Shown here piece by piece: positions 9,238-63,570 of a stretch of DNA of 64,000 bases. Numbering within the stretch: the first letter of the stretch is position 1; every line of letters begins with the position of its first letter. This DNA is from Escherichia coli. Lineage in GTDB: Bacteria > Pseudomonadota > Gammaproteobacteria > Enterobacterales > Enterobacteriaceae. Made by a program: the position numbers and the translations under genes. The notes below the pieces were generated by a model. It saw only the letters and a program-made list of their open reading frames with translations. It was not told where the DNA came from and did no database searches. The stretch is from assembly GCF_050920415.1 (NCBI RefSeq), contig NZ_CP169309.1; one strand, 5' to 3'.

Positions 9238-9338
9238 TAGTTGAATAATCAACCGGAATAAATCTCCGGTAAATAATGACAAAAACAAAATTGGCCGTTT
9301 CGGTCAGGGCCAACTATTGCCTGAAAAAGGGTAACGAT

Positions 9339-18939: not shown

Positions 18940-18978
18940 CAGTACTCTGGTAGCTGTAAAGCCAGGGGCGGTAGCGTG
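18940..18978 (+). promoter_or_regulatory. JUMPstart element with ops site (GGCGGTAGCGTG) for RfaH-dependent antitermination of the O-antigen operon
   Basis: Exact ops consensus GGCGGTAGCGTG at 18967-18978 within cagtactctggtagctgtaaagccaggggcggtagcgtg, about 75 bp upstream of rmlB. Confidence 0.85.
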
Positions 18979-21037: not shown

Positions 21038-21094
21038 TAGTTTTTGCATCTTGTTCGTGATGGTGGAACAAGATGAATTAAAAGGAATGATGAA

Positions 21095-21970: not shown

Positions 21971-21984
21971 TATGTGGGAACTCA

Positions 21985-22852: not shown

Positions 22853-23951
22853 AATTGATTTTTTAGATCTTTTTGCAATTAACCAGCGACAGCACAAAGA
22901 ATTAGTCTCTGCGTTTAGTAGGGTGCTAGATTCTGGTTGGTATATCATGGGCGAAGAACTTGAGCAGTTCGAGAAAGAGTTCGCAGAATACTGTGGAGTT
23001 AAGTATTGCATTGGTGTAGCAAATGGCCTTGATGCGTTGATACTAGTATTGAGGGCATGGAAAGAACTCGGCTATCTAGAAGACGGTGACGAGGTATTAG
23101 TACCGGCAAATACATATATTGCTTCTATTCTTGCTATAACAGAGAACAAACTTGTTCCTGTTCTTGTTGAACCAGATATAGAAACTTATAATATTAATCC
23201 TGCTTTAATTGAAAATTACATTACGGAAAAAACTAAAGCAATATTACCGGTTCACTTATATGGTCTATTGTGCAATATGCCAGAAATTAGTGCAATCGCA
23301 AGAAAATATAATCTGTTGATTCTTGAAGATTGTGCACAAGCACATGGTGCAATACGTGATGGTCGCAAAGCTGGAGCTTGGGGGGATGCTGCAGGATTTA
23401 GTTTTTATCCAGGAAAAAACCTTGGAGCTTTGGGGGATGCGGGAGCTGTTACTACAAATAATGCAGAATTATCCTCAACTATAAAAGCTTTGCGAAATTA
23501 TGGGTCACATAAGAAATATGAAAATATTTATCAGGGATTGAATAGTCGATTGGATGAACTGCAAGCAGCCTTATTGCGTGTAAAAATCCATACATTACCG
23601 GAAGATACTGCGATTCGGCAAAGGATTGCTGAAAAATATATTCGTGAAATAAAAAACCCTGCGATTACGTTACCAGTGTACGAAGGCCAAGGTGCGCACG
23701 TTTGGCATTTATTTGTAGTAAGAATCGCTAATCGTGAAAAATTCCAGTCATACTTATCAGAGAAGGGTATCCAAACCTTAATTCACTATCCATTACCACC
23801 CCATAAGCAGCAAGCATATCAAAATATGTCTAGTCTTAGCCTTCCAATTACTGAGCAAATTCATGATGAAGTCATTTCTTTACCTATAAGTCCGGTAATG
23901 AGTGAAGATGATGTCAATTATGTAATCAAAGTGGTCAATGATTACAAGTAA
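22845..23951 (+). CDS. fdtB: dTDP-3-keto-6-deoxyhexose 3-aminotransferase (DegT/DnrJ/EryC1 family, PLP-dependent)
   Basis: 368-aa ORF of DegT/ArnB aminotransferase type; context with fdtA/fdtC. Confidence 0.78.
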
Positions 23952-25213: not shown

Positions 25214-25222
25214 AAACAGAGG

Positions 25223-26278
25223 TTGAAATTGAAAATAATTATACCTGTCTTAGGATTTGGCAGGGCTGGTGGTGAAAGAGTTCTTTCTAAGCTGGCAACT
25301 GAATTGATGAATTATGGACATGATGTAAGTTTTGTTGTTCCAGATAATAGAACTAATCCATATTATGCTACCACAGCAAAAATCGTCACGAGTAAATCTA
25401 GTCAAAACCGTGTAAAAATATTGAGAATCATTAAAAATTACTATAATCTGTGGCGTAAATGCATAGAATTAAATCCTGATGCTGTAGTTGCTAGTTTTCA
25501 TTTGACTGCCTATCTTGTCGCATTATTACCAATCACCCGTCGTAAGAAATATTATTATATTCAGGCGTATGAAGTTAATTTTTTTGATAATATAATATGG
25601 AAATTAATAGCGGGTTTAACATATTATTTACCGCTTAAAAAAATACTAAATAGTCCTAATTTGCTTCCTCATAAACATGATGATTTTATAGGAGTAGTTC
25701 CTGCAGGAGTAGATTTAAACGTTTTCTATCCGAAACCATCAAATAGGTTATTAAATGGTCACACATCAATAGGGATTATTGGTAGAAAAGAGAAGCACAA
25801 AGGAACTAGCGAAATTATTTCAGTATTGTGTTCACTGGAAAATAAAGTTGGAATTATAATTAATATTGCGATCTATCTTGAAGAAGTTGATAAGGAGCGT
25901 TTAATTGCTGCCGGGTTTCAGGTTAATTTTTTTCCGATTACTTCTGATTTAGAATTGGCATCTTTTTATCGAAGCAATGACATCATGATTGCAGCTGGGT
26001 TAATTGAAGATGGCGCTTTCCATTATCCTTGTGCTGAATCAATGGCTTGTGGTTGTCTTGTTATTTCAAATTATGCGCCACTTACTGAAACTAACAGTGT
26101 ACTTAAATTAGTCAAGTTTGATGCTTGCAAACTTGGTAAAGCAATTAATCTTTGTCTCAATCTTGACCTAGAAGAAAAAAGCAAAGAAATCCAATCTAAT
26201 ATTTCTGTGTTGAATAAATATGACTGGAAAATTGTTGGTGAAACTTTCAATAGTTTATTGTTAGATGCAAATAAATAG
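25223..26278 (+). CDS. O-antigen glycosyltransferase (GT1/GT4-like)
   Basis: About 350-aa ORF with non-ATG start (TTG at 25223 or 25229; AGAGG RBS at 25217-25221 favours 25229); N-terminus KIIIPVLGFGRAGGERV... typical of GT4-like transferases. Confidence 0.7.
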   Translation: MKLKIIIPVLGFGRAGGERVLSKLATELMNYGHDVSFVVPDNRTNPYYATTAKIVTSKSSQNRVKILRIIKNYYNLWRKCIELNPDAVVASFHLTAYLVALLPITRRKKYYYIQAYEVNFFDNIIWKLIAGLTYYLPLKKILNSPNLLPHKHDDFIGVVPAGVDLNVFYPKPSNRLLNGHTSIGIIGRKEKHKGTSEIISVLCSLENKVGIIINIAIYLEEVDKERLIAAGFQVNFFPITSDLELASFYRSNDIMIAAGLIEDGAFHYPCAESMACGCLVISNYAPLTETNSVLKLVKFDACKLGKAINLCLNLDLEEKSKEIQSNISVLNKYDWKIVGETFNSLLLDANK

Positions 26279-26298
26279 TATACGTTGATGGGGAAAAT

Positions 26299-26856
26299 AT
26301 GAATATTGTTAAAACTGATATTCCAGATCTGATCGTTCTTGAACCAAAAGTGTTTAGTGATGAACGCGGCTTTTTTATGGAGAGTTATAATCAGATTGAA
26401 TTTGAGAAGACAATAGGAAGGCACGTAAATTTTGTTCAGGATAATCATTCAAAATCTAGTAAAGGCGTACTACGTGGGTTACATTATCAATTAGCACCGT
26501 ATGCACAGGCTAAATTAGTTCGATGTGTTGTAGGTCAGGTATTTGATGTTGCTGTTGATCTTAGAAAAAATTCACCAACGTTCAAAAAATGGTTTGGAAT
26601 AACCCTTTCCGCAGAAAATAAACGACAATTATGGATACCTGAAGGATTTGCTCATGGTTTCTTGGTGACCAGTGATGAAGCTGAGTTCATTTATAAAACA
26701 ACGAACTACTATGCTCCTGGTCATCAGCAAGCAATTATTTACAATGATCCTATTTTAAACATCGATTGGCCTTTCTGCAGTAGTGCTCTGTCATTATCGC
26801 AAAAAGATCAAGAAGCAAAATTATTTTCAGAATTATTGGACAGTGAACTGTTCTAA
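26299..26856 (+). CDS. rmlC: dTDP-4-dehydrorhamnose 3,5-epimerase
   Basis: 185-aa ORF MNIVKTDIPDLIVLEPKVFSDERGFFMESYN...; canonical RmlC cupin; separated from rmlBDA. Confidence 0.92.
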   Translation: MNIVKTDIPDLIVLEPKVFSDERGFFMESYNQIEFEKTIGRHVNFVQDNHSKSSKGVLRGLHYQLAPYAQAKLVRCVVGQVFDVAVDLRKNSPTFKKWFGITLSAENKRQLWIPEGFAHGFLVTSDEAEFIYKTTNYYAPGHQQAIIYNDPILNIDWPFCSSALSLSQKDQEAKLFSELLDSELF

Positions 26857-26923
26857 TAAAGTGTGCCACCTTATCCGTCTGAAGGATAGGTGGTTGCTTA
26901 TATTTTTTGAGTATGTTTGTATA

Positions 26924-27886
26924 ATGACAGAAAATAGTCCGAAATATAAACACGATAAAAGCTTAATAAGTTTTATCTACTTATTTTTTATATTTACACT
27001 TATTGTAGGCTTCATTATCGCAAATACCCAGTTTTTGGGGCGAAGTAGAGACTATGATAATTATATACAGATCTTTTCTGGTGAAGAAGGGGAGGGGGTT
27101 CTTGAATTATTTTATCGCGGATTGATGTTAATAACGACCAGCTATGAAATTATCATTTTTATAATTTTAACATGTTCTTTTTTTATAAAGGCAAGGTTTC
27201 TTGCTAACTATTCGCGTAATTTTTCAGGCTTGACCTTATTCTTTGTTTATTATGCAAGCGTTGCACTTTGGGTTTTAGATTATACTCAATTCAGAAATGG
27301 TCTATGTATTTCCATTTTAATGTTTTCCGTATACTATTTATTTATAAATAAACCGACTTATTTTTATTTCTCGCTATTATGTGCAATTGCAACTCATTGG
27401 TCTGCTTTGCCTTTTTTGCTTTTATATCCTTTTGTCTATTCAAAAAAAATAAGACACCTTGGTTATTTTTGTTTCAGTATTCTTGTTTTGATTGCGATCT
27501 CAGGAGAAGGAAAAGAGATCATTTCTTTTATAAGAAATTTTGGAGTGGGACAAAAAATAGGAAACGAAGCTGGTGTAAATTTAATAAATTCATTATCCCT
27601 TACCGCTATTTTCTGGTTTGTTATTAGTTACATATCAAGCATTGGAAATGAAAGGAGAAATTTAAGACTTTTCTTTTGTTATGGTGTCATGCAATACGTG
27701 ACTTTTAGCCTTTTCTCTCTACCTGTTATGGCTTTCCGTATTTTGGAAATGTATTTTTTCCTTATGTTAACCATTGGGGTGTTTATTAAGCAAAAAAAGA
27801 ATTATTATTTTGTTTTTTGCAAAGTGTTAATTTTATTGTATCTAACATACTATTATCATATGGTTTTTGGAGTGATTAATGTGTAA
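26924..27886 (+). CDS. wzy: O-antigen polymerase Wzy
   Basis: Listed ORF starts at 26783; ATG at 26924 (MTENSPKYKHDKSLISFIYLFF...) gives about 320 aa; very AT-rich, multi-TM, with a large predicted loop. Confidence 0.7.
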   Translation: MTENSPKYKHDKSLISFIYLFFIFTLIVGFIIANTQFLGRSRDYDNYIQIFSGEEGEGVLELFYRGLMLITTSYEIIIFIILTCSFFIKARFLANYSRNFSGLTLFFVYYASVALWVLDYTQFRNGLCISILMFSVYYLFINKPTYFYFSLLCAIATHWSALPFLLLYPFVYSKKIRHLGYFCFSILVLIAISGEGKEIISFIRNFGVGQKIGNEAGVNLINSLSLTAIFWFVISYISSIGNERRNLRLFFCYGVMQYVTFSLFSLPVMAFRILEMYFFLMLTIGVFIKQKKNYYFVFCKVLILLYLTYYYHMVFGVINV

Positions 27887-28766
27887 GGCTAAGGTGTTGG
27901 CTATAATTGTTACTTACAACCCGGAAATTATTCGTTTGACGGAATGTATTAACTCTTTAGCCCCACAAGTTGAGAGAATAATTCTTGTAGATAATGGCTC
28001 AAATAATAGTCATTTGATAAAAAATATCATTATTAATAACCTTGAAATTATTTTGCTTTCGGAAAACAAAGGCATTGCATTTGCTCAGAACCATTGTGTT
28101 AAGAAGGGTCTGGAAGCAAAAGAGTTTGACTATTTATTTTTCTCAGATCAGGATACTTGCTTTCCTAGCGATGTTATTGAAAAACTTAAGAGTACATTTA
28201 CGAAAAATAATAAAAAAGGTAAAAATGTTGCTTGTGCTTCTCCTTTTTTTAAAGACCATCGTTCAAATTATATGCATCCGTCAGTCAGCCTAAATATTTT
28301 TACGAGTACAAAAGTTATATGTAGTGAAGTAGACGATGATCTTTATCCCTCGCATGTTATTGCTTCTGGGATGTTAATGTCTCGCGAGGCATGGCGCGTC
28401 GTCGGACCATTTTGTGAAAAACTCTTTATAGACTGGGTTGATACAGAATGGTGTTGGCGTGCATTAGCTAATAGTATGATTATTGTTCAGACACCATCAG
28501 TCATCATTTCTCATGAACTTGGGTATGGGCAGAAAATTTTTGCTGGTCGATCTGTTACAATACATAATTCTTTCAGAAATTTTTATAAAATACGTAATGC
28601 AATATACTTAATGCTGCATTCAAATTATAGCTTCAAGTATCGTTATCATGCTTTTTTTCATGCGACAAAGAATATTGTATTTGAAATTTTATATTCGAAA
28701 GAAAAATTAAATTCACTGAAGGTTTGTTTTAAAGCTGTACGTGATGGTATGTTCAATAATTTTTAA
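27879..28766 (+). CDS. O-antigen glycosyltransferase, GT2 family (probable rhamnosyltransferase)
   Basis: 295-aa ORF; N-terminus LAIIVTYNPE...VDNGSNNS and a DxD-like region (FFSDQDT) typical of GT2. Confidence 0.72.
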   Translation: MCKAKVLAIIVTYNPEIIRLTECINSLAPQVERIILVDNGSNNSHLIKNIIINNLEIILLSENKGIAFAQNHCVKKGLEAKEFDYLFFSDQDTCFPSDVIEKLKSTFTKNNKKGKNVACASPFFKDHRSNYMHPSVSLNIFTSTKVICSEVDDDLYPSHVIASGMLMSREAWRVVGPFCEKLFIDWVDTEWCWRALANSMIIVQTPSVIISHELGYGQKIFAGRSVTIHNSFRNFYKIRNAIYLMLHSNYSFKYRYHAFFHATKNIVFEILYSKEKLNSLKVCFKAVRDGMFNNF

Positions 28767-28796
28767 TACAAAAATAGTTAGGCTCAAGGTGTTTAA

Positions 28797-29873
28797 ATGG
28801 AAGAAAATAATATGAAGACGGTCGCTGTAGTTGGCACAGTGGGTGTTCCTGCTTGTTATGGTGGGTTTGAATCACTTGTTCAGAATCTAATTGATTATCA
28901 ATCTGATGGTATACAATATCAGATATTTTGCTCTTCAAAAAAATATAATAAAAAATTAAAAAATTATAAAAATGCAGAATTAATCTATTTGCCGATAAAT
29001 GCCAATGGCGTCTCTAGCATAATTTATGACATTATGTGTTTAATTATTTGTTTATTCAAAAGGCCAGATGTTGTTTTAATATTGGGGGTATCTGGTTGTT
29101 TATTTCTACCAATTTATAAACTATTTTCAAAATCAAAGATCATTGTCAACATCGATGGGCTTGAATGGCGTAGAAATAAATGGGGAACGTTTGCTAAGAA
29201 ATTTCTCAAAATATCTGAGGCGATATCTATTAGAATAGCTGATATTATCATTTCAGATAATCAAGCAATAGCTGATTATGTGGAAAATAAGTACAATAAA
29301 AAAAGCGTAGTTATAGCTTATGGGGGAGATCATGCTACTAATCTTAGTACACCGATAGACGATGATCAAAAAAAAGATGGTTATTATTTGGGGCTTTGTA
29401 GGATAGAGCCTGAGAATAATATAGAAATGATTTTGAATGCCTTCATTAATACAGATAAAAAAATTAAATTTATGGGTAATTGGGATAATAGCGAGTATGG
29501 GCGCCAGCTAAAAAAATATTATTCAAACTATCCAAATATCACACTACTAGAACCTAACTATAATATCGAAGAACTTTATAAACTAAGAAAAAATTGCCTT
29601 GCATACATTCATGGACACTCGGCTGGTGGAACAAACCCTTCTTTAGTTGAAGCGATGCATTTTAATATTCCTATTTTTGCTTTCGATTGTGACTTTAATC
29701 GTTACACAACTAATAATTTAGCTCATTACTTTAATGATTCTGAACAACTGACCTCATTAGCAGACAGTTTGTCTTTTGGAAATCTTAAATGTCAAGTATT
29801 AGATTTAAAAAAATATGCTGAAGATATGTATAACTGGAGGCATATAGCTGCTATGTATGAATCTATTTATTAA
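28797..29873 (+). CDS. O-antigen glycosyltransferase (GT1-like)
   Basis: 358-aa ORF (alternative start MKTVAVVG at 28812); GT1-like C-terminal motifs; last gene of the O-unit block. Confidence 0.68.
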   Translation: MEENNMKTVAVVGTVGVPACYGGFESLVQNLIDYQSDGIQYQIFCSSKKYNKKLKNYKNAELIYLPINANGVSSIIYDIMCLIICLFKRPDVVLILGVSGCLFLPIYKLFSKSKIIVNIDGLEWRRNKWGTFAKKFLKISEAISIRIADIIISDNQAIADYVENKYNKKSVVIAYGGDHATNLSTPIDDDQKKDGYYLGLCRIEPENNIEMILNAFINTDKKIKFMGNWDNSEYGRQLKKYYSNYPNITLLEPNYNIEELYKLRKNCLAYIHGHSAGGTNPSLVEAMHFNIPIFAFDCDFNRYTTNNLAHYFNDSEQLTSLADSLSFGNLKCQVLDLKKYAEDMYNWRHIAAMYESIY

Positions 29874-30039
29874 ACGCATTAACAATAATATAATTGACCT
29901 TATATAGCTATCAGAGTAAAAATGTAACGCTGATTTTTTTGTTAAATGATGCGCATTATATATTTAATGATTAAAATACTCTTGATCAAATAAAACTATT
30001 TAATTAATAATGTAAAATTTCATTATGCTATTTAAGATG

Positions 30040-30108
30040 TGAAAAATAACTTAAATAAATGATGGGATATATTTATATTATCCCGGTTATAGACAAGCCC
30101 AGGGAAAG
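30040..30108 (+). repeat. Degenerate duplicate of the 5' end of the H-repeat (ISAs1) transposase gene
   Basis: 30057-30108 (aaatgatgggatatatttatattatcccggttatagacaagcccagggaaag) is about 85% identical to 30257-30308 inside the transposase ORF; the ATG equivalent is mutated. Confidence 0.6.
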
Positions 30109-30244
30109 ATCATCAGAAGTACACTTTTTGTACTAAATAATTCGCATTTTATGTTTAAAAATATGAGATATTCCTCATTACCTGAAGCTGTTTTTTATTG
30201 CTTATACATGATCAAATACTCCTTACATAATTAAGGAGAACAAA

Positions 30245-31381
30245 ATGGAACTTAAAAAATTGATGGAACATATTTCTATTATCCCCGATTACAGACAAGC
30301 CTGGAAAGTGGAACATAAATTATCGGATATTCTACTGTTGACTATTTGTGCCGTCATTTCTGGTGCAGAAGGCTGGGAAGATATAGAGGATTTTGGAGAA
30401 ACACATCTCGATTTTTTGAAGCAATATGGTGATTTTGAAAATGGTATTCCTGTTCACGATACCATTGCCAGAGTTGTATCCTGTATCAGTCCTGCAAAAT
30501 TTCACGAGTGCTTTATTAACTGGATGCGAGATTGCCATACTTCAGATGATAAAGACGTCATCGCAATTGATGGAAAAACACTCCGGCATTCTTATGACAA
30601 GAGTCGCCGTAAGGGAGCGATTCATGTCATTAGTGCGTTCTCAACAATGCACAGTCTGGTCATCGGACAGATCAAGACGGATGAGAAATCCAATGAGATT
30701 ACAGCCATCCCTGAACTTCTTAACATGTTGGATATTAAAGGGAAAATTATCACAACTGATGCGATGGGTTGCCAGAAAGATATTGCAGAGAAGATACAAA
30801 AACAGGGAGGTGATTATTTATTCGCTGTAAAAGGAAATCAGCGTCGGCTTAATAAAGCCTTTGAAGAAAAATTCCCACTGAAAGAATTAAATAATCCAGA
30901 GCATGACAGTTATGCAATTAGTGAAAAGAGTCACGGCAGAGAAGATATCCGTCTTCATATTGTTTGCGATGACCCTGATGAACTTATTGATTTCACGTTT
31001 GAATGGAAAGGACTGAAAAAATTATGCGTGGCAGTCTCCTTTCGCTCAATAATAGCAGAGCAAAAGAAAGAGCCCGAAATGATGGTCAGATATTATATCA
31101 GTTCTGCTGATTTAACCGCTGAGAAGTTTGCGACAGCGATTTGAAATCACTGGCACGTGGAGAATAAGCTGCACTGGCGTCTGGACGTGGTAATGAATGA
31201 AGACGATTGTAAAATAAGAAGAGGAAATGCAGCAGAATTATTTTCTGGGATACGGCACATTGCTATTAATATTTTGACGAATGATAAGGTATTCAAGACA
31301 GGATTAAGACGTAAGATGCGAAAAGCAGCCATGGACAGAAACTATCTCGCGTCAGTCCTTGCGGGGAGCGGGCTTTACTAG
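30245..31381 (+). mobile_element. ISAs1-family (H-repeat-associated) transposase gene interrupted by a single in-frame TGA (pseudogene)
   Basis: 299-aa ORF (30245-31144) and 74-aa ORF (31157-31381) are in the same frame, separated only by TGA at 31142-31144; the combined about 378-aa product has the ISAs1 motif ...[21 protein letters not shown]... with the stop at a conserved Arg position. Confidence 0.8.
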
Positions 31382-31453
31382 TCCTTCCTCGCTCAGTGAC
31401 AGAATATTGAATGAATAGCATTAAAATTATTAAATAATATGGTTTAATTCGAC

Positions 31454-33081
31454 ATGAACTTTAAGAATATAATTAGAATAATACTACCTTTTTTTATTTT
31501 CTTGAGTATTTTACTTTACTCAGGAAGGGCGGATAGTGTTTTGTTATTTACTATCGAATACACACTTGCAAGTATGGCAATCTTTCTGATAAAAAGAAAG
31601 TTTATAAGCAATATCTTGTGGGGGATTTATCTCTCAATTTTAGGTGTACAGGCAGCATCGCTATTTAGTTCAGGACAATATTTGATGCCTCTTGCCTTGT
31701 CGAATGCTGCAGAAGTTGAATCGCTAGGCATTGGCGAGGTAATCAAGGTTTTTTCTATTTTTATTTTATTTGTTATAGTTTCATTCGTTACGATGCCTTC
31801 TGGTGCTCTAGTCGGCCGTATTAAATATTATAAATTTAATTTTTTCTGTATAGTATTATTGCTTGTGTGTTCTTTCATAAGCACGGGACCGGTATATGCT
31901 TTTTATGAAACAGCAAAATTGTACTATTTACAGCAAACCTTTAAGCCTAGTGAGAAGATCGGTGATGCCGGGAAATCTTTTTTAAAAACAAGTGTTTTTA
32001 TTAACCCTCTACAGAATAACAACAACTTCAAAGGGCGTAATGTTATTGTAATCTTTGCTGAGGGATTTTCATCGGAGATTATTGGTAATTCAAAAATGGC
32101 GCATTTTCCAATTACGCCTAATTTAGATAAGTTATCTACTGAAGCACTAAGTTTTAAAAATTATTATAACCATACAGCAGTAACCTTTCGAGGTTTAAGA
32201 GGCCAGTTAACTTCTGGCTATCAATTTCGTGATGGGTTAACTGATGCTGGTACTGGTATTGCACAATTATCTAACGTAGAAATTAATAATATTTATCTTC
32301 ATCGTCAAACATCTTTGCCGAATATATTGAAAGAGTATGGCTATAAAAGTTATTTTATAGCGTCTACAGAAAAAATAGCCCACTCAACACTATGTTGAAA
32401 ACGCTTAATTTTGATAAAGTTCTTGGTATGGGAGATTTTATTGGTTATCAACGCGACAGAATGACTGATAAGCAAACATTTAATGCACTGCAATATTTTT
32501 TACGTTCTCAAGAAAATAAAAACGAACGCTTTTTTATTGGTGTGTACCCATCTGGTACTCATCATGGTCAAGATAGTCCAAATGAAAAATATTTTGATGG
32601 TAGCAATCCTCTCTACAATAAATTCTATAACTATGATTTTCAGTTGGGGAAGTTTGTTGATTTTTTTCGGCGCAGTTCATTTTATGGCAATACGTTGTTG
32701 ATAATTACATCGGATCATTCTACATTTCCTTCGACAGAATATAAGAAATCATTTAACAGCGATTCTCGTTATTTTGTGGACAAAATACCATTTCTGATCA
32801 TTGGGAAAAATATTACGCCTGAAGTTTTAGATGCAGGAGGTGAAAATTCTTTAAGTTTCGCGCCAACAATATTGCACATGTTAGGGATTCAGTATTCAAT
32901 GAATTATTTTTTGGGGTGTTCTCTTTTTGATAAGACGTGCACATCACCATTCTCACATCTTTCTGCTATTGGTAGTGATTATTTCAATACAGGCAAAGAA
33001 AATCATGTTGAACTAATTCAAAATAATAGTGGTAATGAATTAATAAAATTAGCCGAACGTTTTTATAACATTAGTGGCTAA
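31454..33081 (+). pseudogene. Sulfatase/alkaline-phosphatase-superfamily membrane enzyme (LtaS/phosphoglycerol- or phosphoethanolamine-transferase-like), frameshifted
   Basis: 314-aa ORF (31454-32398) has N-terminal TM helices then a sulfatase-like domain (NVIVIFAEGFSSE...); the domain continues in another frame as a 229-aa ORF (32392-33081; ...LLIITSDHSTFPS...); frame change lies near an A6 run at 32370-32375. Confidence 0.6.
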
Positions 33082-37217: not shown

Positions 37218-37300
37218 CCGGATGCGATGCTGGCGCATCTTATCCGGCCTACGTGTGTTGAGATAATGTGTAGGCACGATAAGCTTGCGCATCGGGCAAT
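37218..37300. repeat. REP (repetitive extragenic palindromic) elements between wzzB and hisI
   Basis: gccggatgcgatgctggcgcatcttatccggcctac and tgtaggcacgataagcttgcgcatcgggca match the E. coli REP consensus family. Confidence 0.65.
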
Positions 37301-37344: not shown

Positions 37345-37949
37345 TCACTGATGCCGTTTACGCAGGTTCTCAATTACCGTCGTTAAATCCAGATCCTGAT
37401 CCTGCAACAGCACCAGCAGGTGATACATCAAATCAGACGCCTCGTTGGTCAGCTCAAAGCGGTCATGTACCGTTGCTGCCAGTGCGGTTTCCACGCCTTC
37501 TTCGCCCACTTTCTGCGCAATGCGTTTAGTGCCGCTGGCATACAGTTTGGCGGTGTAAGAGGTTTCCGGGTCGGCAGATTTCCGTTCGGCGAGCAGTTGT
37601 TCCAGTTGATACAGGAACAGCCACTGGTGAGCGGTGTTGCCGAAGCAGCTGTTGGTGCCTTTGTGGCAGGTCGGGCCGATGGGATTCGCCAGCACCAGCA
37701 ATGTGTCGTTGTCGCAGTCCGGCGCAATGCTCACTACGTCGAGGAAATTGCCGGACGTTTCACCTTTGGTCCACAGTCGCTGTTTAGTGCGCGAGAAGAA
37801 GGTGACTTTGCCGCTTTCGATGGTTTTGTCCAGAGCTTCCGGATTCATATAGCCCAGCATTAGCACTTCGCCGGATACCGCGTGTTGAACAATTACCGGC
37901 ATCAATCCGTCGGTTTTTTCCCAGTCCAGTTCGCGACGTTGTTGTTCTG

Positions 37950-37956
<7 letters not shown>
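37345..37956 (-). CDS. hisI: Bifunctional phosphoribosyl-AMP cyclohydrolase / phosphoribosyl-ATP pyrophosphatase
   Basis: 203-aa [28 protein letters not shown]...; last gene of the his operon. Confidence 0.95.
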
Positions 37957-40034
<2,078 letters not shown>

Positions 40035-40035
<1 letters not shown>

Positions 40036-41101
40036 TACAGCACTCCTTTAGACGAGGGCAGGGTATCGCCTTCCACGCGGATGGCCTGGCGCAGGGTGCG
40101 ACCAAAAGCTTTGAACAGGCTCTCTACACGGTGGTGATCATTTTTACCTTTGGTTTTCAGGTGCAGGGTCACGCCCATGGTGTATGAGAGCGAACGGAAG
40201 AAGTGCTCGATCATTTCGGTGCTGAGATCGCCTACACGCTGGTAGGTAAACTCGGCTTTATATTCCAGGTGCGGGCGACCAGAGATATCCAGCGCGCAGC
40301 GGGCAAGACATTCGTCCATCGGCAGCACAAAACCGAAGCGGCAAATACCGCGTTTGTCGCCAAGAGCTATTTTTAACGCTTCGCCCAGCGCCAGACCGGT
40401 ATCTTCGACAGTGTGGTGATCGTCGATATAGAGGTCGCCTTTAACGTTGATTTCCATCCGGAAGCCGCCGTGGGTAGCAATCTGATCCAGCATGTGATCA
40501 AAGAAGCCAACGCCGGTGTTAATCTTGCTGCCGCCTTCGCGATCCAGCCACACCTGAACGTCAATCTGCGTCTCTTTGGTATTACGCACTACGTGAGCGT
40601 AACGATCGCGTTTAGTGAGCTGTTCGCCAATCATTGGCCAGTTCAGGGTTTCGCGGTCGTAGCGTAAACCATTAATGCCCATGTTTTCCGCCAGTTGAAT
40701 ATCGGTCGCGCGATCGCCAATTACATAACTGTTAGCGCGATCCATCGCTTGCTCAGCCAGGTAACGTTCCACCAGTTTTACTTTCGGCTTACGGCAGTCG
40801 CACTCATCGGCGGGCAAGTGCGGGCAAATCAGCACTTCATCAAACTGCACGCCTTGCGAGGTGAAGATCTGCATCATCAGATTGTGCGGGCCATCGAAAT
40901 CCGCCTGCGGGAAACTTTGTGTTCCCAGACCATCCTGATTAGTGATCATCACCAGCTTGTAGCCCGCTTTTTGCAGCCTCAGCAGTTCCGGGATCACGCC
41001 CGGTTCAAAGGCGAGTTTGTCAAAACGGTCCACCTGAAAATCACTCGGCGGTTCGCTAATCAGGGTTCCATCGCGATCAATAAAAAGATACTTCTGACTC
41101 A

Positions 41102-41102
<1 letters not shown>
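40035..41102 (-). CDS. hisB: Bifunctional histidinol-phosphatase / imidazoleglycerol-phosphate dehydratase
   Basis: [19 protein letters not shown]...; 355 aa from the second Met. Confidence 0.95.
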
Positions 41103-43473
<2,371 letters not shown>

Positions 43474-43478
43474 GGCGA

Positions 43479-44378
43479 TCACTCCATCATCTTCTCAATC
43501 GGCAGGACCAGGATTGAACTGGCACCCAGCGCTTTCAGTTTTTCCATCGTTTCCCAGAACAGGGTTTCGCTGCTGACCATGTGCATCGCTACGCGCTGTT
43601 GATCACCCGCCAGCGGTAGAATGGTTGGGCGTTCGGCACCTGGCAGCAGGGCGATGACTTCATCCAGTCGGTCGGTTGGTGCGTGCATCATGATGTATTT
43701 TGATTCGCGCGCCTGGATCACGCCCTGAATACGCGTCAGCAGTTTGTCGATCAGTTGCTGTTTGGATTCTTCCATTTCGCCATCGCGTTGGATCAGGCAG
43801 GCTTTCGAGCGGTAGATAACTTCGACTTCGCGCAGGCCGTTAGCTTCCAGCGTGGCACCGGTGGAAACCAGATCGCAAATCGCATCCGCCAGTCCGGCGC
43901 GCGGCGCAACTTCGACAGAACCGTTCAGTAAGCAGGATTTAAAAGAGATGCCTTTCTGATCGAGATAACGCTTGAGCAGGTGAGGATAAGAGGTGGCGAT
44001 ACGTTTACCGTTTAAGGAGAGCGGGCCGTCCCAGGCTTCATCAACCGGCGTTGCCAGCGAAAGGCGGCAGCCGCCGAAATCCAGACGACGCAGGGTAAAG
44101 TAGCGAGGATCTTCACCCTGGGCGCGGCGGTTAAGCAGCTCTTCTTCCAGCACGTTTTCGCCGATAATCCCAAGGTCAACCACGCCGTCCATTACCAGAC
44201 CGGGAATGTCGTCGTCACGCACGCGCAGAATATCAATCGGCATGTTTTCTGCCATCGCGATCAGGCGCTGGGTGTGAAGATTAATTTTAATGCCGCAGCG
44301 CGCCAGTAATTCGCGTGAGTCATCACTTAAACGGCCGGATTTCTGCATAGCTATGCGTAAACGAGTGTTGTCTGTCAT
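43479..44378 (-). CDS. hisG: ATP phosphoribosyltransferase
   Basis: [29 protein letters not shown]...; 299 aa from the ATG at 44378. Confidence 0.95.
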
Positions 44379-44424
44379 TTTCTTATTCCTCTTTAAACCT
44401 GTCTGAACCGTTATCAACCGCGCA

Positions 44425-44461
44425 ATAAAAAAGCCCCCGGAAGGTGATCTTCCGGGGGCTT
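44425..44461 (-). terminator. his operon attenuator (leader terminator hairpin)
   Basis: On the minus strand agcccccggaagatcaccttccgggggct followed by a U-run, between hisL and hisG. Confidence 0.85.
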
Positions 44462-44523
44462 TCTCATACGTTCATGCACCACTGGAAGATCTGAATGTCT
44501 TCCAGCACACATCGCCTGAAAGA

Positions 44524-44574
44524 CTAGTCAGGATGATGGTGATGATGGTGGTGTTTAAATTGAACGCGTGTCAT
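44524..44574 (-). CDS. hisL: his operon leader peptide (7 consecutive His codons)
   Basis: Reverse complement reads ATG ACA CGC GTT CAA TTT AAA CAC CAC CAT CAT CAC CAT CAT CCT GAC TAG = MTRVQFKHHHHHHHPD*. Confidence 0.92.
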   Translation of the reverse strand: MTRVQFKHHHHHHHPD

Positions 44575-44797
44575 AAAAGTCTCTGTGAATGTTTATTCAA
44601 CTGATGTCTTTTAACCTAAACCACTTTCACGTTAGAAAGCAAGGGCTTTTTTATATATTTTATGGCGATGGATTTGTTTAATGAATGAGCGGGGAAAGGA
44701 GAGGGCCAGGAGTGGCTACGTTAAAAAAGTAATCGTGAAAATATGTCTTTAAAACCCTCAAGAACATTGTGTTCTGTAACTAAAGTGGGCTTGGTTC

Positions 44798-44905
44798 CTG
44801 CCGGATGCGGCGTGAATGCCTTATCTGGTCTACAAATGTTGCCTAAATTCAATATATTGATGTTTTTGTAGGACTGATAAGCGGAGCGCATCAGGCAATT
44901 GTATA
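44798..44905. repeat. REP/BIME-type palindromic repeats between hisL and yeeZ
   Basis: gcctgccggatgcggcgtgaatgccttatctggtctaca and tgtaggactgataagcggagcgcatcaggca resemble the REP consensus. Confidence 0.6.
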
Positions 44906-45000
44906 TTTGCTAACAGTTTCGATTTCATTCATAGAATGAATTGTCAGTTTTGATACGCTAGCGTAGCCTTATAGATCTAAGGTGTATCAGGAGATAACGG

Positions 45001-45825
45001 ATGAAAAAGGTCGCAATTGTCGGGTTAGGGTGGTTAGGTATGCCGCTAGCGATGTCACTTTCAGCGCGAGGCTGGCAAGTCACCGGGAGTAAAACCACAC
45101 AAGATGGCGTCGAAGCGGCCCGAATGAGTGGCATTGATAGTTATCTGCTTCGCATGGAACCTGAGTTAGTTTGCGATTCTGACGATCTGGATGCCCTGAT
45201 GGATGCTGATGCGCTGGTCATCACGCTTCCGGCACGTCGTAGCGGCCCCGGCGATGAGTTCTATTTACAAGCGGTACAAGAGTTAGTGGATAGTGCGCTG
45301 GCTCATCATATTCCCCGCATTATTTTTACCAGCTCAACGTCTGTCTATGGCGACGCACAAGGCACCGTTAAAGAAACGACCCCGCGTAATCCGGTGACCA
45401 ACAGTGGACGAGTATTAAAAGAACTTGAAGACTGGCTGCACAATTTACCCGGTACTTCAGTCGATATTCTGCGTCTTGCGGGCCTGGTCGGGCCGGAACG
45501 TCATCCTGGTCGCTTTTTTGCCGGAAAAACCGCGCCTGATGGTGAACATGGTGTCAATTTAGTCCATTTAGAAGATGTTATTGGCGCTATCACCCTGTTG
45601 TTACAGGCACCTAAAGGCGGACACATCTATAATATATGTGCGCCAGCTCACCCTGCGCGTAATGTTTTCTATCCGCAGATGGCCCGTTTACTGGGACTGG
45701 AACCTCCGCAGTTCAGAAATAGTCTGGACAGCGGCAAAGGTAAGATTATTGATGGCAGTCGGATTTGTAATGAACTGGGATTTGAATACCAGTATCCCGA
45801 TCCGCTGGTAATGCCGCTGGAGTAA
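45001..45825 (+). CDS. yeeZ: NAD(P)-binding epimerase/dehydratase-family protein YeeZ
   Basis: 274-aa ORF MKKVAIVGLGWLGMPLAMSL... with Rossmann GxGxxG; position next to the his operon. Confidence 0.85.
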   Translation: MKKVAIVGLGWLGMPLAMSLSARGWQVTGSKTTQDGVEAARMSGIDSYLLRMEPELVCDSDDLDALMDADALVITLPARRSGPGDEFYLQAVQELVDSALAHHIPRIIFTSSTSVYGDAQGTVKETTPRNPVTNSGRVLKELEDWLHNLPGTSVDILRLAGLVGPERHPGRFFAGKTAPDGEHGVNLVHLEDVIGAITLLLQAPKGGHIYNICAPAHPARNVFYPQMARLLGLEPPQFRNSLDSGKGKIIDGSRICNELGFEYQYPDPLVMPLE

Positions 45826-46800: not shown

Positions 46801-47066
46801 AGAAAAATTATTATGACAAGCCTCTCATTCTCTTGTCATTTCCCCCCCATTTAGGCACAATGCGCCGCTGTCAAAAAATGACTAAAAACCGACGTTTAAT
46901 TAGCGTCGGTTATTTTTTGCTTCAAACCAATCATTCATACCAAGAGGCCGGGCTTCGTACCGGATAGATATTTACTAAAAATCGACAGTTGTTGTCGCTG
47001 AGGAATCCAAAAAAATGGGGCAATTTTTTGCTTACGCGACGGTTATTACCGTAAAGGAGAATGACC

Positions 47067-48425
47067 ATGTCGCATAACGTTACTCCAAACACCTCTCGCG
47101 TGGAATTGCGTAAAACGCTTACGTTAGTTCCGGTTGTAATGATGGGTCTTGCCTATATGCAGCCGATGACGCTGTTTGATACATTTGGTATCGTTTCAGG
47201 CCTCACGGATGGTCATGTGCCGACAGCCTATGCGTTCGCATTGATTGCGATCCTGTTTACGGCTCTGAGCTACGGGAAGCTGGTTCGCCGCTATCCTTCT
47301 GCTGGCTCTGCATACACTTACGCCCAGAAATCCATTAGCCCGACCGTCGGCTTTATGGTGGGTTGGTCTTCTCTGCTCGACTATCTGTTCGCGCCGATGA
47401 TCAACATTCTGCTGGCGAAAATCTATTTTGAAGCTCTGGTGCCTTCCATCCCATCGTGGATGTTTGTGGTGGCGCTGGTGGCCTTTATGACCGCCTTTAA
47501 CCTGCGTAGTCTGAAATCCGTAGCGAACTTCAACACCGTCATCGTGGTGTTGCAGGTAGTGCTGATCGCGGTGATTCTGGGCATGGTTGTTTATGGCGTA
47601 TTTGAAGGTGAAGGCGCTGGTACGCTGGCGAGCACTCGTCCGTTCTGGTCTGGCGATGCGCATGTTATTCCGATGATTACCGGGGCGACAATCCTGTGCT
47701 TCTCCTTTACCGGCTTTGACGGCATCAGCAACCTGTCGGAAGAAACCAAAGATGCAGAGCGCGTGATCCCGCGTGCGATTTTCCTGACCGCGCTGATCGG
47801 CGGCATGATCTTCATCTTTGCAACTTACTTCCTGCAACTGTATTTCCCGGATATCTCTCGCTTTAAAGATCCGGATGCGTCACAGCCTGAAATCATGCTG
47901 TACGTTGCGGGTAAAGCGTTCCAGGTTGGCGCGCTGATCTTCTCCACCATTACCGTACTGGCGTCCGGTATGGCGGCGCACGCAGGCGTGGCGCGTCTGA
48001 TGTACGTAATGGGTCGTGACGGCGTATTCCCGAAAAGCTTCTTCGGTTATGTGCACCCGAAATGGCGTACTCCGGCAATGAACATCATCCTGGTTGGCGC
48101 GATTGCTCTGCTGGCAATCAACTTCGACCTGGTAATGGCTACGGCGCTGATTAACTTTGGTGCGCTGGTGGCGTTCACCTTCGTTAACCTGTCGGTTATC
48201 TCGCAGTTCTGGATCCGTGAGAAGCGTAACAAGACGCTGAAAGATCACTTCCAGTATCTGTTCCTGCCGATGTGTGGTGCGCTGACTGTAGGTGCGCTGT
48301 GGGTTAACCTGGAAGAAAGCTCAATGGTTCTGGGGCTGATCTGGGCGGCAATCGGTCTGATTTACCTGGCTTGCGTCACCAAGAGCTTCCGTAACCCGGT
48401 TCCGCAGTACGAAGACGTTGCATAA
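47067..48425 (+). CDS. plaP: Putrescine importer PlaP (APC-family amino acid/polyamine permease)
   Basis: [32 protein letters not shown]...; 452 aa, polytopic. Confidence 0.88.
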
Positions 48426-48464
48426 TCTTACAAGCCGGATGACATAATCATCCGGTAAATCTCA

Positions 48465-48497
48465 AAAAGCCGGAGTTTGTCGCTCCGGCTTTTTTGT
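48465..48497. terminator. Bidirectional rho-independent terminator between convergent plaP and sbcB
   Basis: aaaaagccggagtttgtcgctccggcttttttg: perfect hairpin flanked by A-run and T-run. Confidence 0.75.
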
Positions 48498-48498
48498 T

Positions 48499-49926
48499 TC
48501 AGACGATCTCTTCCGCGTACTGCCAAAGCGCTTTTAACAGCGCCACTTTCTCTTTGTCATCGGCATATTGTTGTGCCAGCATCTGCAATTCATCTGCATA
48601 GCCCTGCAAAAACTCTGGCGTGAAGACCTGGCGGCGGTGCTCCAGCCAGCGTTGCTGCTCGGCATAATCCAGCGTCCCCGGGAAGTTGCGTGCTCGATAA
48701 TTGAACAACAGCTTTTCAATCCGTTTATCAACAAAAGTGATATCCAGTGCCGGTAAATTACGCGGCTCGGTTTCAAGCACAATTTTCATTGCTGCACGAT
48801 CGGCGTCACTGAAAAAGCCATTATAAAGCTGTGCATCCACGTTATCTGAAGGCGTAAACGGTTCGGCTTCGGCGAATATCGCCACCACTTTTTCACGCAC
48901 TTGCGGATTTTCACGCAGAATTTTCAGGTTATCGAGGCAATGCTGACGATTAATTCCCAGTCGGTCGGCATCTTCCGGGCGTAGCGTATTCGCCTGGGCC
49001 AGCACCGGACATTTATTGATATGCACCAGTTTAACCGGAACGGCGGCGTTATCGCCAAGATCGGCTTTTGCGGTATATAAACGCTCGCGCAATGTGTCGC
49101 TATCCAGCTCCAGTAATGGCGAAATGTCTCCTGCCAAATCCACCATAATTACGGCATTGCGATTTTCAGGATGCCACGCCAGCGGTGCTACCCAGCTGGT
49201 ATTGCCGCGCCATGCCCCAAACATTCCGGAAACGTGAACCAGGGGTTTCATCTGCGGAACATCAATCAACGCCATCAGTTTGTGTTTATTGCGATGGGTA
49301 AAGAGATAATCAAATAGGCGTGGCTGACGCATTTTTACCAGCTTTGCCATCGCAATAGTGGCGTACACATCAGCCATCGCATCGTGGGCGTTGCTATGTT
49401 CAATACCATTCGCTTTGGTTAAATGCTCAAGGCGAAAGCTCGGTAGACCGTCATCATTTTCAGGCCAGTTTATTCCTTCCGGGCGCAGGGCATAACAGGC
49501 ACGCATAACATCCAGTAAATCCCAGCGCGAGTTATCATGCTGCCAGCTCCAGGCGTAAGGATCGTAGAAATTACGATAAAAAACGTTGCGTGTGACTTCG
49601 TCGTCGAAACGCACATTGTTGTAGCCCAGAATACAGGTCTTCGGTACGGTAAAAAGCGAGTGAATACGGGCGGCAAACGCGGCTTCGTTTTCTCCTTTCG
49701 CCCGTGCTTCCTGCGGGGTAATACCGGTAATTAATACTGCTCCAGGCTGCGGTAAATAGTCATCCGCGGGCTTGCAGTAAAAAACTTCGGGTTCGCCGAT
49801 GACGTTGAATTCGTTATCAGTGCGAATGGCTGCGAACTGTGCAGGGCGATCTAACGCGGGGTGCGTTCCAAAGGTTTCGTAATCGTGAAACAAAAAGGTA
49901 GATTGTTGCTTACCGTCATTCATCAT
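48499..49926 (-). CDS. sbcB: Exodeoxyribonuclease I
   Basis: Listed ORF 48499-49974; Met at 49926 (MMNDGKQQSTFLFHDYETFGTHPALDRPAQFAAIRTD...) gives 475 aa. Confidence 0.93.
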   Translation of the reverse strand: MMNDGKQQSTFLFHDYETFGTHPALDRPAQFAAIRTDNEFNVIGEPEVFYCKPADDYLPQPGAVLITGITPQEARAKGENEAAFAARIHSLFTVPKTCILGYNNVRFDDEVTRNVFYRNFYDPYAWSWQHDNSRWDLLDVMRACYALRPEGINWPENDDGLPSFRLEHLTKANGIEHSNAHDAMADVYATIAMAKLVKMRQPRLFDYLFTHRNKHKLMALIDVPQMKPLVHVSGMFGAWRGNTSWVAPLAWHPENRNAVIMVDLAGDISPLLELDSDTLRERLYTAKADLGDNAAVPVKLVHINKCPVLAQANTLRPEDADRLGINRQHCLDNLKILRENPQVREKVVAIFAEAEPFTPSDNVDAQLYNGFFSDADRAAMKIVLETEPRNLPALDITFVDKRIEKLLFNYRARNFPGTLDYAEQQRWLEHRRQVFTPEFLQGYADELQMLAQQYADDKEKVALLKALWQYAEEIV

Positions 49927-56957: not shown

Positions 56958-57640
56958 ATGATGCGTCGTGTAAATATTTTTTGCTCATTTGCTCTACTTT
57001 TTGCCAGCCATAATAGCCTGGCGGTAACTTATCCATTACCTCCAGAGGGTAGCCGTTTAGTGGGACAGTCGCTTACTGTAACTGTTCCTGATCACAATAC
57101 CCAGCCGCTGGAGACTTTTGCCGCACAATACGGGCAAGGGTTAAGTAACATGCTGGAAGCGAATCCGGGGGCTGATGTCTTCTTACCGAAGTCTGGCTCG
57201 CAACTCACCATTCCGCAGCAACTGATTTTGCCCGCCACTGTTCGTAAAGGGATTGTGATTAACGTCGCTGAGATGCGTCTTTATTACTACCCGCCAGACA
57301 GTAATACTGTGGAAGTCTTTCCTATTGGTATCGGCCAGGCTGGGCGAGAAACCCCGCGTAACTGGGTGACTACCGTTGAACGTAAACAAGAAGCACCAAC
57401 CTGGACGCCAACGCCGAACACCCGGCGCGAATATGCGAAACGAGGGGAGAGTTTGCCCGCATTTGTTCCTGCGGGGCCTGATAATCCCATGGGGCTGTAC
57501 GCGATTTATATTGGCAGGCTATATGCCATCCACGGTACCAATGCCAATTTTGGTATTGGGCTCCGGGTAAGTCAGGGCTGTATTCGTCTGCGCAATGACG
57601 ATATCAAATATCTGTTTGATAATGTTCCTGTAGGTACTCG
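56958..57640 (+). pseudogene. ldtA: L,D-transpeptidase LdtA (ErfK), 5' portion, interrupted by an IS element
   Basis: [36 protein letters not shown]... with the catalytic region (...[24 protein letters not shown]...); after ...NVPVGTR the frame runs into IS sequence. Confidence 0.85.
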
Positions 57641-57694
57641 TGAACCGCCCCGGAAATCCTGGAGACTAAACTTCCTGAGAAAGAGGTAAACAGG

Positions 57695-58021
57695 ATGACT
57701 AAAAATACTCGTTTTTCCCCCGAAGTCCGTCAACGCGCAGTTCGTATGGTTCTGGAAAGTCAGGGCGAATATGACTCACAATGGGCGGCAATTTGTTCCA
57801 TTGCTCCAAAGATTGGCTGTACGCCAGAGACTCTGCGTGTCTGGGTTCGCCAGCATGAGAGGGATACCGGGAGCGGTGATGGTGGGCTCACCACCGCTGA
57901 ACGTCAGCGTCTGAAAGAGCTGGAACGTGAAAATCGTGAACTGCGCCGCAGTAACGATATCCTTCGCCAGGCTTCCGCTTATTTTGCGAAGGCGGAGTTC
58001 GACCGCCTCTGGAAAAAATAA
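57695..58021 (+). CDS. IS3-family transposase OrfA (HTH DNA-binding)
   Basis: 108-aa [45 protein letters not shown]...; ends in the A-rich run ctggaaaaaataa at the orfA/orfB overlap. Confidence 0.9.
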
Positions 58022-58908
58022 TGCCACTGCTGGATAAGCTGCGTGAGCAGTACGGGGTCGGACCGGTATGCAGTGAACTGCATATTGCCCCGTCAACGTA
58101 TTACCATTGTCAGCAGCAGCGGCATCATCCTGATAAACGCAGTGCCCGTGCGCAGCGCGATGACTGGCTGAAGAGAGAGATACAGCGCGTATACGATGAA
58201 AATCATCAGGTGTACGGTGTGCGTAAAGTCTGGCGTCAGTTGTTACGGGAAGGAATCAGGGTGGCCAGATGTACAGTGGCGCGCCTCATGGCGGTTATGG
58301 GACTTGCCGGTGTTCTCCGGGGTAAAAAGGTCCGCACTACCGTCAGCCGGAAAACCGTTGCCACAGGTGACCGCGTAAACCGTCAGTTCGTGGCAGAACG
58401 TCCTGACCAGCTGTGGGTGGCTGATTTTACTTACGTCAGCACATGGCAGGGCTTCGTCTATGTGGCGTTCATCATTGATGTGTTTGCCGGATACATCGTG
58501 GGGTGGCGGGTCTCATCGTCTATGGAAACGACATTCGTGCTGGATGCGCTGGAGCAGGCGTTGTGGGCCCGTCGTCCGTCTGGCACCATCCATCACAGCG
58601 ATAAAGGCTCTCAGTATGTGTCACTGGCCTATACGGAGCGACTAAAAGAAGCAAAACTGCTGGCATCAACAGGGAGTACAGGCGACTCGTATGACAACGC
58701 GATGGCTGAGAGCATCAATGGTCTTTACAAAGCGGAGGTAATACACCGTAAGAGCTGGAAAAACCGTGCAGAAGTGGAACTGGCCACACTCACGTGGGTG
58801 GACTGGTATAACAATCGACGATTGCTGGGAAGGCTGGGCCATACTCCTCCGGCAGAAGCAGAAAAAGCTTATTATGCTTCCATCGGAAACAATGATCTGG
58901 CAGCCTGA
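58021..58908 (+). CDS. IS3-family transposase OrfB (DDE integrase domain), probably expressed as an OrfAB -1 frameshift fusion
   Basis: 295-aa ORF in the -1 frame relative to orfA; DDE/integrase-core motifs (...HHSDKGSQYVS...DNAMAESINGLYKAE...). Confidence 0.9.
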   Translation: MPLLDKLREQYGVGPVCSELHIAPSTYYHCQQQRHHPDKRSARAQRDDWLKREIQRVYDENHQVYGVRKVWRQLLREGIRVARCTVARLMAVMGLAGVLRGKKVRTTVSRKTVATGDRVNRQFVAERPDQLWVADFTYVSTWQGFVYVAFIIDVFAGYIVGWRVSSSMETTFVLDALEQALWARRPSGTIHHSDKGSQYVSLAYTERLKEAKLLASTGSTGDSYDNAMAESINGLYKAEVIHRKSWKNRAEVELATLTWVDWYNNRRLLGRLGHTPPAEAEKAYYASIGNNDLAA

Positions 58909-58950
58909 GTTCACAGATAAAACACTCTCCAGGAAACCCGGGGCGGTTCA

Positions 58951-59208
58951 ACTCGTGTACAAATTATTGATCAGCCAGTGAAATACACAACGGAACCGGA
59001 TGGATCAAAGTGGCTGGAAGTTCATGAGCCACTGTCGCGCAACCGTGCGGAATATGAGTCAGACCGAAAAGTGCCTTTGCCAGTAACGCCATCTTTGCGG
59101 ACGTTCATTAACGGGCAAGAAGTTGATGTGAATCGCGCAAATGCTGCATTGCAGCGCCGATCAGGAATGCCTGTGCAAATTAGTTCTGGTTCAAGACAGA
59201 TGTTTTAA
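58951..59208 (+). pseudogene. ldtA: L,D-transpeptidase LdtA (ErfK), 3' portion downstream of the IS insertion
   Basis: Continues the ldtA frame after the IS: (T)RVQIIDQPVKYTTEPDGSKWLEVHEPLSRNRAEYESDRKVPLPVTPSLRTFINGQEVDVNRANAALQRRSGMPVQISSGSRQMF*. Confidence 0.85.
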
Positions 59209-59263: not shown

Positions 59264-59339
59264 TGGCTCCTCTGACTGGACTCGAACCAGTGACATACGG
59301 ATTAACAGTCCGCCGTTCTACCGACTGAACTACAGAGGA
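59264..59339 (-). tRNA. asnV: tRNA-Asn (anticodon GUU)
   Basis: Reverse complement is TCCTCTGTAGTTCAGTCGGTAGAACGGCGGACTGTTAATCCGTATGTCACTGGTTCGAGTCCAGTCAGAGGAGCCA; cloverleaf with GTT anticodon and encoded CCA. Confidence 0.95.
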
Positions 59340-61670: not shown

Positions 61671-61746
61671 TGGCTCCTCTGACTGGACTCGAACCAGTGA
61701 CATACGGATTAACAGTCCGCCGTTCTACCGACTGAACTACAGAGGA
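61671..61746 (-). tRNA. asnU: tRNA-Asn (anticodon GUU)
   Basis: 76-nt sequence identical to the asnV copy, on the minus strand. Confidence 0.95.
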
Positions 61747-63494: not shown

Positions 63495-63570
63495 TCCTCT
63501 GTAGTTCAGTCGGTAGAACGGCGGACTGTTAATCCGTATGTCACTGGTTCGAGTCCAGTCAGAGGAGCCA
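63495..63570 (+). tRNA. asnW: tRNA-Asn (anticodon GUU)
   Basis: Plus-strand copy of the same 76-nt tRNA-Asn sequence, with CCA end. Confidence 0.95.

Follow-up and report, generated by a model that had tools for sequence, protein, structure and literature searches.

The hisL leader gene and ribosome-mediated attenuator of the his operon in a genome of Escherichia coli

The minus strand of the window (the whole 64-kb stretch of Escherichia coli DNA that was analysed) carries a complete his operon, in which hisG, D, C, B, H, A, F and IE lie on one strand at 44378..37345. None of these genes is a pseudogene in NZ_CP169399.1, a near-identical E. coli genome annotated by NCBI. The window is collinear with that genome, with seven mismatches in the first 50 kb, all at 5636-29306 and none in the his region, and the coordinates of the locus in NZ_CP169399.1 coincide with those of the window. 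Upstream of hisG, minus-strand 44574..44524 translates as MTRVQFKHHHHHHHPD*, a leader ORF with its ATG at 44574..44572 and its TAG at 44526..44524. NCBI places hisL (WP_001364200.1) at 44524..44574 in NZ_CP169399.1 and a 'His leader region' at 44425..44548. The features of the locus are given below, with segments named A-F after the model described in PMC4046918.

44613..44642, minus strand: putative his promoter, read from sequence, with -35 hexamer TTGCTT (44642..44637), 18-nt spacer and -10 hexamer TAGGTT (44618..44613)
44524..44574, minus strand: hisL leader peptide gene, 16 codons plus TAG, MTRVQFKHHHHHHHPD (translation and NCBI annotation)
44533..44553, minus strand: seven His codons (codons 8-14), CAC CAC CAT CAT CAC CAT CAT
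44541..44527, minus strand: segment A
44524..44506, minus strand: segment B
44505..44497, minus strand: segment C
44491..44482, minus strand: segment D
44462..44447, minus strand: segment E
44443..44427, minus strand: segment F
44506..44541, minus strand: hairpin A:B, -11.7 kcal/mol (folding, Rfam consensus structure)
44532..44515, minus strand: his pause hairpin, the inner part of A:B, CCUGA-CUAGUCUU-UCAGG, with a 5-bp stem and an 8-nt loop
44503..44504, minus strand: candidate RNA polymerase pause site, U at 44504 (+102 if +1 is 44605) followed by G at 44503, also read from sequence
44481..44506, minus strand: hairpin C:D, -11.9 kcal/mol (folding)
44524..44497, minus strand: hairpin B:C, with the alternative partner of C, -10.6 kcal/mol (folding, inverted repeat)
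44447..44490, minus strand: antiterminator D:E, -11.4 kcal/mol (folding, inverted repeat)
44468, minus strand: rare substitution, U here and C in K-12 and nearly all E. coli (alignment)
44425..44467, minus strand: attenuator E:F, an intrinsic terminator (Rfam, folding, inverted repeat)
43479..44378, minus strand: hisG, first structural gene of hisGDCBHAFI (NCBI annotation of NZ_CP169399.1)

The His codons of hisL are its regulatory part, at which the ribosome stalls when His-tRNA is scarce (PMC4046918). An exact run of seven CAY codons occurs only once on the two strands of the 64 kb, where none is expected (100 dinucleotide-preserving shuffles). When the whole window was scanned against Rfam, the His_leader family (RF00514) matched 44548..44425 on the minus strand with 131.8 bits (E = 1.2e-21), against a gathering score of 49, and the match spans model positions 1-126 of 126. 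The 163-nt leader has a minimum free energy (MFE) of -66.6 kcal/mol, as opposed to -38.1 +/- 3.5 kcal/mol for shuffled sequences (z = -8.1; 0 of 200 as good). Membership of RF00514 is further supported by the ORF with its His codons, the intrinsic terminator, a ribosome-dependent antiterminator (computational) and the location at the his operon. One might suppose that a short ORF and a hairpin have met here by chance and serve no regulatory role, but the E-value of the Rfam match, the shuffle expectation for the His run and the z-score of the fold all refute this, as does the occurrence of the element in 76 loci of many enterobacterial genera, always beside the his operon; its probability is practically nil.

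Nothing speaks against the identification as hisL and the his attenuator, and the region 44425-44574 is almost certainly the control region of the E. coli his operon, comprising promoter, 16-codon hisL and a ribosome-mediated transcription attenuator. An earlier note on this DNA had proposed the same identity, which now has the support of the Rfam model, the NCBI annotation at the same coordinates, near-identity to K-12 and the identical set of stems in 57 other, distinct leaders from enterobacteria. Its coordinates prove exact, running from the hisL ATG to the 3' end of the Rfam match; translation and the unique CAY run confirm the 16-codon leader with seven consecutive His codons that it described, and sequence, folding and Rfam agree on its GC-rich terminator hairpin with U-run upstream of hisG on the minus strand. 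Since hisL and the His leader stand at the same coordinates in the NCBI annotation, the feature is already annotated in public records, as the note's own assessment, textbook and not novel, would have it. The hisL gene and attenuator found here are known and ordinary, with no departure of note.

At the core of the terminator, 44459..44433, GCCCCCGGAAG and CUUCCGGGGGC form a G+C-rich stem of 11 bp that closes a 5-nt loop, AUCAC; its stability is -23.5 kcal/mol and rises to -32.2 kcal/mol when the stem is extended by A/U pairs to 44467. The stem is followed by UUUUUUAU at 44432..44425, that is, by a U-run at 44432..44427 and then A and U, and 46 nt separate the end of the U-run from the ATG of hisG at 44378. 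A generic terminator scan of 44300-45100 reported no terminator, though the his attenuator is present there. Probably the scan missed it through pairing of the A-run with the U-run, since a stem extended in this way leaves no U tail, and generic terminator scans need to be used with caution on attenuators.

The fold of minimum free energy for the full leader consists of A:B, C:D and E:F, and matches the Rfam consensus structure. In the alternative set, B pairs with C and the AUCUUCC of D is predicted to pair with the GGAAGAU of E, a pairing that sequesters the terminator's 5' arm; the two sets of hairpins are mutually exclusive. The earlier note had suggested that folding 44400-44580 would reveal both the terminator and the antiterminator. 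The terminator conformation did appear, but at equilibrium the antiterminator did not: it never formed in equilibrium folds of the full-length leader, whether or not a ribosome footprint was masked, and masking a 30-nt footprint at codons 8-17 of the full-length RNA gave the terminator in every case. Because equilibrium folds cannot show the switch, folds of truncated nascent RNA, cut at the end of segment E and before F and carrying a ribosome footprint, were used instead. Without a ribosome, the nascent RNA through E forms A:B and C:D and leaves E unpaired, and a ribosome at the stop codon gives C:D, again with E unpaired. When the ribosome A site is placed at His codons 9-12, B:C and D:E form. 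Which set of hairpins forms on the nascent transcript thus depends on the position of the ribosome. As the full-length fold is always that of the terminator, E:F being far more stable than D:E, read-through must rest on kinetic trapping, presumably during passage of the polymerase through F and the U-run. A plain MFE fold, therefore, cannot display the antiterminator of such a leader, and folds of nascent transcripts with a ribosome footprint are needed.

The 76 loci mentioned above come from a scan of the genome collection for the pattern CAY x7-CCN-GAY-TAR, which recovered leaders from Escherichia, Salmonella, Citrobacter, Enterobacter, the Klebsiella group, Kluyvera, Raoultella, Kosakonia, Leclercia and others; the pattern fixes the tail of the peptide, and the sample is therefore one of fairly close relatives at the level of the Enterobacteriaceae. 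Among the 58 distinct leaders that were aligned (the window and 57 others), 98.5% of the pairing is kept for the terminator set and 99.7% for the antiterminator set. Outside the coding part, variable columns make up 23 of 79 paired positions and 16 of 22 unpaired positions (Fisher p = 0.0004). The one common variant within a stem is an A/G alternation in segment C (16 of 58 sequences), which lies opposite U in B as well as in D and hence remains paired in both conformations. Compensatory change was found at 0 of 45 pairs (RNAalifold on the 58 leaders, whose stems are near-invariant; shuffle controls were flat). Such invariance is expected where each segment has two alternative partners. The scan also turned up a leader in Trabulsiella odontotermitis (locus L062, leader at 1180-1345, minus strand) with ten consecutive His codons as opposed to seven, the rest of its attenuator being unchanged.

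The promoter was assigned from the hexamers TTGCTT and TAGGTT, which are probably those of the his promoter. An A/T-rich tract at 44662..44646 lies just upstream of the putative -35 hexamer. A consensus promoter scan of 44300-45100 did not report the his promoter, because each hexamer matches at only 3 of 6 positions. Transcription probably starts near 44605, since it is only with +1 at this position that the sites at +46-56, +126-134 and +187-195 named in PMC10989985 coincide with DnaA-box-like 9-mers. With this start, the ATG of hisL falls at +32 and the 3' end of the terminated transcript near +179 to +181.

The pause hairpin has the same sequence here as in the K-12-type sequence and in the other aligned leaders. 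It agrees with the published description of the his pause hairpin, a 5-bp stem and an 8-nt loop (PMC9098449), and both its role in pausing and its melting by the translating ribosome, which couples translation to transcription, have been reported (PMC4227799). The putative pause site sits 11 nt after the hairpin, in the context GGCGAUGUGUGCU|G, with G at -10, a pyrimidine at -1 and G at +1. U 44504 is presumably the his pause position, in line with the Landick laboratory's work on the his pause. The his pause site is a standard model for studies of RNA polymerase. Neither the pause hairpin nor the pause site, although both are parts of the mechanism, was mentioned in the earlier note.

It has been proposed that the attenuator also needs DnaA, bound to DnaA-box-like sites on the leader RNA, the 'rDnaA boxes', and so acts as a 'DnaA-dependent riboswitch' (PMC10989985). 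According to this model, DnaA on boxes 1 and 2 stands in the way of the ribosome, and at box 3 it shifts the balance from D:E towards E:F. The proposal draws on reported RNA immunoprecipitation in vivo and on genetic data, and it names three sites with four DnaA-box-like 9-mers, boxes 1 and 2 overlapping (PMC10989985). All four 9-mers are unchanged in the window, at +46-54 and +48-56 (44560..44550), +126-134 (44480..44472) and +187-195 (44419..44411). Each of them, however, departs at 2 positions from a 9-mer consensus in which a W and an N are already allowed, and the 8 such matches in 240 nt compare with about 3 by chance in our own estimate, which assumes uniform composition and would be higher for an A/T-rich sequence. 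The count is not clearly above chance, and the sites are therefore not statistically distinctive and were not adopted into the mechanism. The authors themselves report binding of DnaA to the RNA in vivo and none in vitro (PMC10989985), and the classical model requires no protein factor (PMC4046918). We consider a requirement for DnaA unlikely, and retain classical attenuation by the translating ribosome as the preferred reading.

The pairing of A:B, C:D and E:F or of B:C and D:E, and its dependence on translation of the leader, come from published experiments, as does the response to charged tRNA-His, which was reported for sequences from Salmonella and E. coli whose stems are those found here (PMC4046918). 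By analogy with work on identical or near-identical sequences, this operon would share the promoter with its start site, the pause, the kinetic competition and regulation by His-tRNA. On this model, transcription would initiate near 44605 and the RNA polymerase would pause at about 44504 after the A:B pause hairpin has formed, until a ribosome translating hisL melts the hairpin and frees the polymerase, so that translation and transcription become coupled. With plentiful His-tRNA, the ribosome would reach the TAG and cover both A and B; C would then pair with D, and E would be left free to pair with F, the resulting hairpin and U-run ending transcription about 46 nt before hisG. When His-tRNA is scarce, the ribosome would stall on the seven His codons and cover only A, which would allow B:C and D:E to form, and D:E would keep the terminator's 5' arm occupied until the polymerase had moved beyond the U-run and on into hisGDCBHAFI. 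In the absence of translation, A:B, C:D and E:F would all form and transcription would terminate.

Compared with the K-12 hisL and his attenuator (RF00514), the window has the same peptide, segments A-F, pause hairpin, terminator, U-run, promoter hexamers and distance to hisG. Over 44370..44712 it is 98.3% identical by alignment to the K-12-type locus NZ_CP034953.2, from which it differs by three single bases, at 44666, 44468 and 44382, none of them in a stem. The difference at 44666 lies about 61 nt before the proposed start and is the sole one between about -107 and +1, the promoter region, and that at 44382 is a G for C, 4 nt before the hisG ATG. At 44468 the substitution falls in the unpaired D-E linker, a stretch that doubles as the loop of the antiterminator, outside all stems of both canonical conformations. 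The earlier note had called the leader and attenuator fully intact, and so they are in all paired segments; the U for C at 44468 is the one rare substitution that the description passes over. Across 44438-44498 (61 bases), an exact match to the window exists in only 7 of 5407 E. coli genomes, and 5392 of the 5407 fall in the 95-99% identity band, in which the rows sampled have mostly a single mismatch, like K-12 with its C at 44468. The 625 bases at 44376-45000 have a match in 5423 of 5426 complete E. coli genomes, at 100% in NZ_CP169399.1.

Could the substitution at 44468 have an effect outside the canonical stems? Codons 3-5 of hisL, GCGUUC (44567..44562), may form a 6-bp long-range helix with GAACGY (44473..44468) in the D-E linker, both on the minus strand, and this helix is predicted by the folds without a ribosome and by RNAalifold. 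To our knowledge, it is absent from the classical six-segment model. All six pairs are kept in 58 of 58 leaders, with variation to wobble pairs only, a figure to be read with the caveat that the 5' arm is coding sequence and that every change seen is a transition. Position 44468 forms the outermost pair, which the substitution turns from G-C into G-U. Perhaps the U weakens this conserved helix, which lies outside the classical model, and so slightly shifts basal attenuation in the lineage, although we regard such an effect as very unlikely. If it were real, the helix would enclose A:B and C:D on untranslated leaders. A U/T at the same position is also found in four Citrobacter species, and the U at 44468 is most likely neutral.

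The flank of the his control region becomes variable at about 44713, some 70 bp upstream of the -35 hexamer. In K-12, yefM-yoeB lies upstream of this point, between hisL and yeeZ, whereas the window lacks this pair and has instead a 212-bp spacer (44713..44923) with a REP element at 44800-44833 on the plus strand and an inverted, BIME-like partner at about 44868-44896 on the minus strand. The REP elements and variable flanks that the earlier note placed nearby are thus both in evidence. We considered whether the flank without yefM-yoeB should count as unusual and rejected the idea, for 22% of E. coli share it (1193 of 5426 genomes, O157:H7 included), as does E. albertii, which has the same 447-nt spacing from yeeZ to the His run and no toxin-antitoxin pair; E. 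whittamii has yefM-yoeB. Most of the other genera in the sample have the start of yeeZ some 195-200 nt away from the His run, again with no toxin-antitoxin pair, and in four loci the distance is 344-472 nt. Because the other genera mostly have no toxin-antitoxin pair, the form without it is probably the older one, and yefM-yoeB looks like a later insertion.

These differences from K-12 raise the possibility that the control region is present but functionally altered, whether by the C-to-U change at 44468, the G for C at 44382 or the REP spacer in place of yefM-yoeB. The rarity of the U allele, the change of a G-C pair to G-U in the possible helix between codons 3-5 and the linker, and the departure of the flank from K-12 from about 44713 onwards would be in keeping with it. 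Each of these points has its answer, however: 44468 is outside every canonical stem, a G-U pair still pairs, and the Citrobacter species with the same base have leaders that are otherwise the same; the promoter from about -107 to +1 departs from K-12 only near -61; and the flank without the toxin-antitoxin pair is that of the many E. coli genomes, O157:H7 among them, and of E. albertii noted above. An alteration of function is, in our judgement, very unlikely. The earlier note took the intact leader to show that his regulation is unperturbed; judged by sequence identity, regulation of the his operon by an ordinary attenuator is probably unperturbed in this strain.

The his leader of Salmonella enterica, for which the model in PMC4046918 was described, has the same 16-residue peptide, seven His codons and stems, and in our folds the same alternative pairings; the comparison used loci L030 and L051, from S. 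enterica subsp. arizonae and diarizonae. Salmonella has AUCAU as its terminator loop, where the window has AUCAC, and a U-run of 8 U, as compared with UUUUUUAU here. Locus L030 has one synonymous change, in the last His codon. Among the attenuators of this kind, that of his is one of the founding examples of ribosome-mediated attenuation. Those of trpL, pheL, thrL, leuL and ilvL share its logic, with a leader ORF rich in the cognate codon, mutually exclusive hairpins and a pause that couples ribosome and polymerase, but their leaders are not homologous to the his leader in sequence. Their regulatory codons differ, and the his leader has six segments, and hence three hairpins as opposed to two, whereas that of trp has four. 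The Rfam scan gave no match here to the trpL, pheL, thrL, leuL or ilvL families.

Several other features of the window were recorded along the way. A second inverted REP-like pair lies at 37239-37283, just past the his operon, between wzzB and the 3' end of hisIE. On the other side of the operon, the gap from yeeY to yoeI/plaP holds a match to the Rfam STnc240 sRNA at 46846-46920 on the plus strand (69.3 bits; gathering score 55). At 48425-48499, plaP and sbcB stand 73 bp apart and yeeE/yeeD are absent, a junction shared by 782 of 5426 E. coli genomes; in K-12-type genomes yeeE/yeeD lie between plaP and sbcB (gene list in PMC5359238). Further along, an IS3-family element at 56958-59206 interrupts an L,D-transpeptidase gene, leaving it in two fragments, and within the element Rfam detects an ALIL programmed-frameshift pseudoknot at 57976-58092 (120.9 bits). 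Three tRNA-Asn genes follow beyond it, at 59267-59339, 61674-61746 and 63495-63567. The O-antigen cluster at 19053-33081 is of O2/O50 type (wzx, wzy) according to the annotation of NZ_CP169399.1, and contains an ISAs1-family transposase pseudogene at 30245-31381 and two acyltransferase gene fragments at 22385-22831. Rfam also detects a JUMPstart element at 18940-18978 and an algC RNA motif at 9285-9334.

The finding of the attenuator matters little beyond its correct annotation. What it does illustrate is that the his attenuator is intact despite recombination-prone surroundings, with the O-antigen cluster to one side of it and, to the other, yefM-yoeB and yeeED, which some genomes have and others lack.
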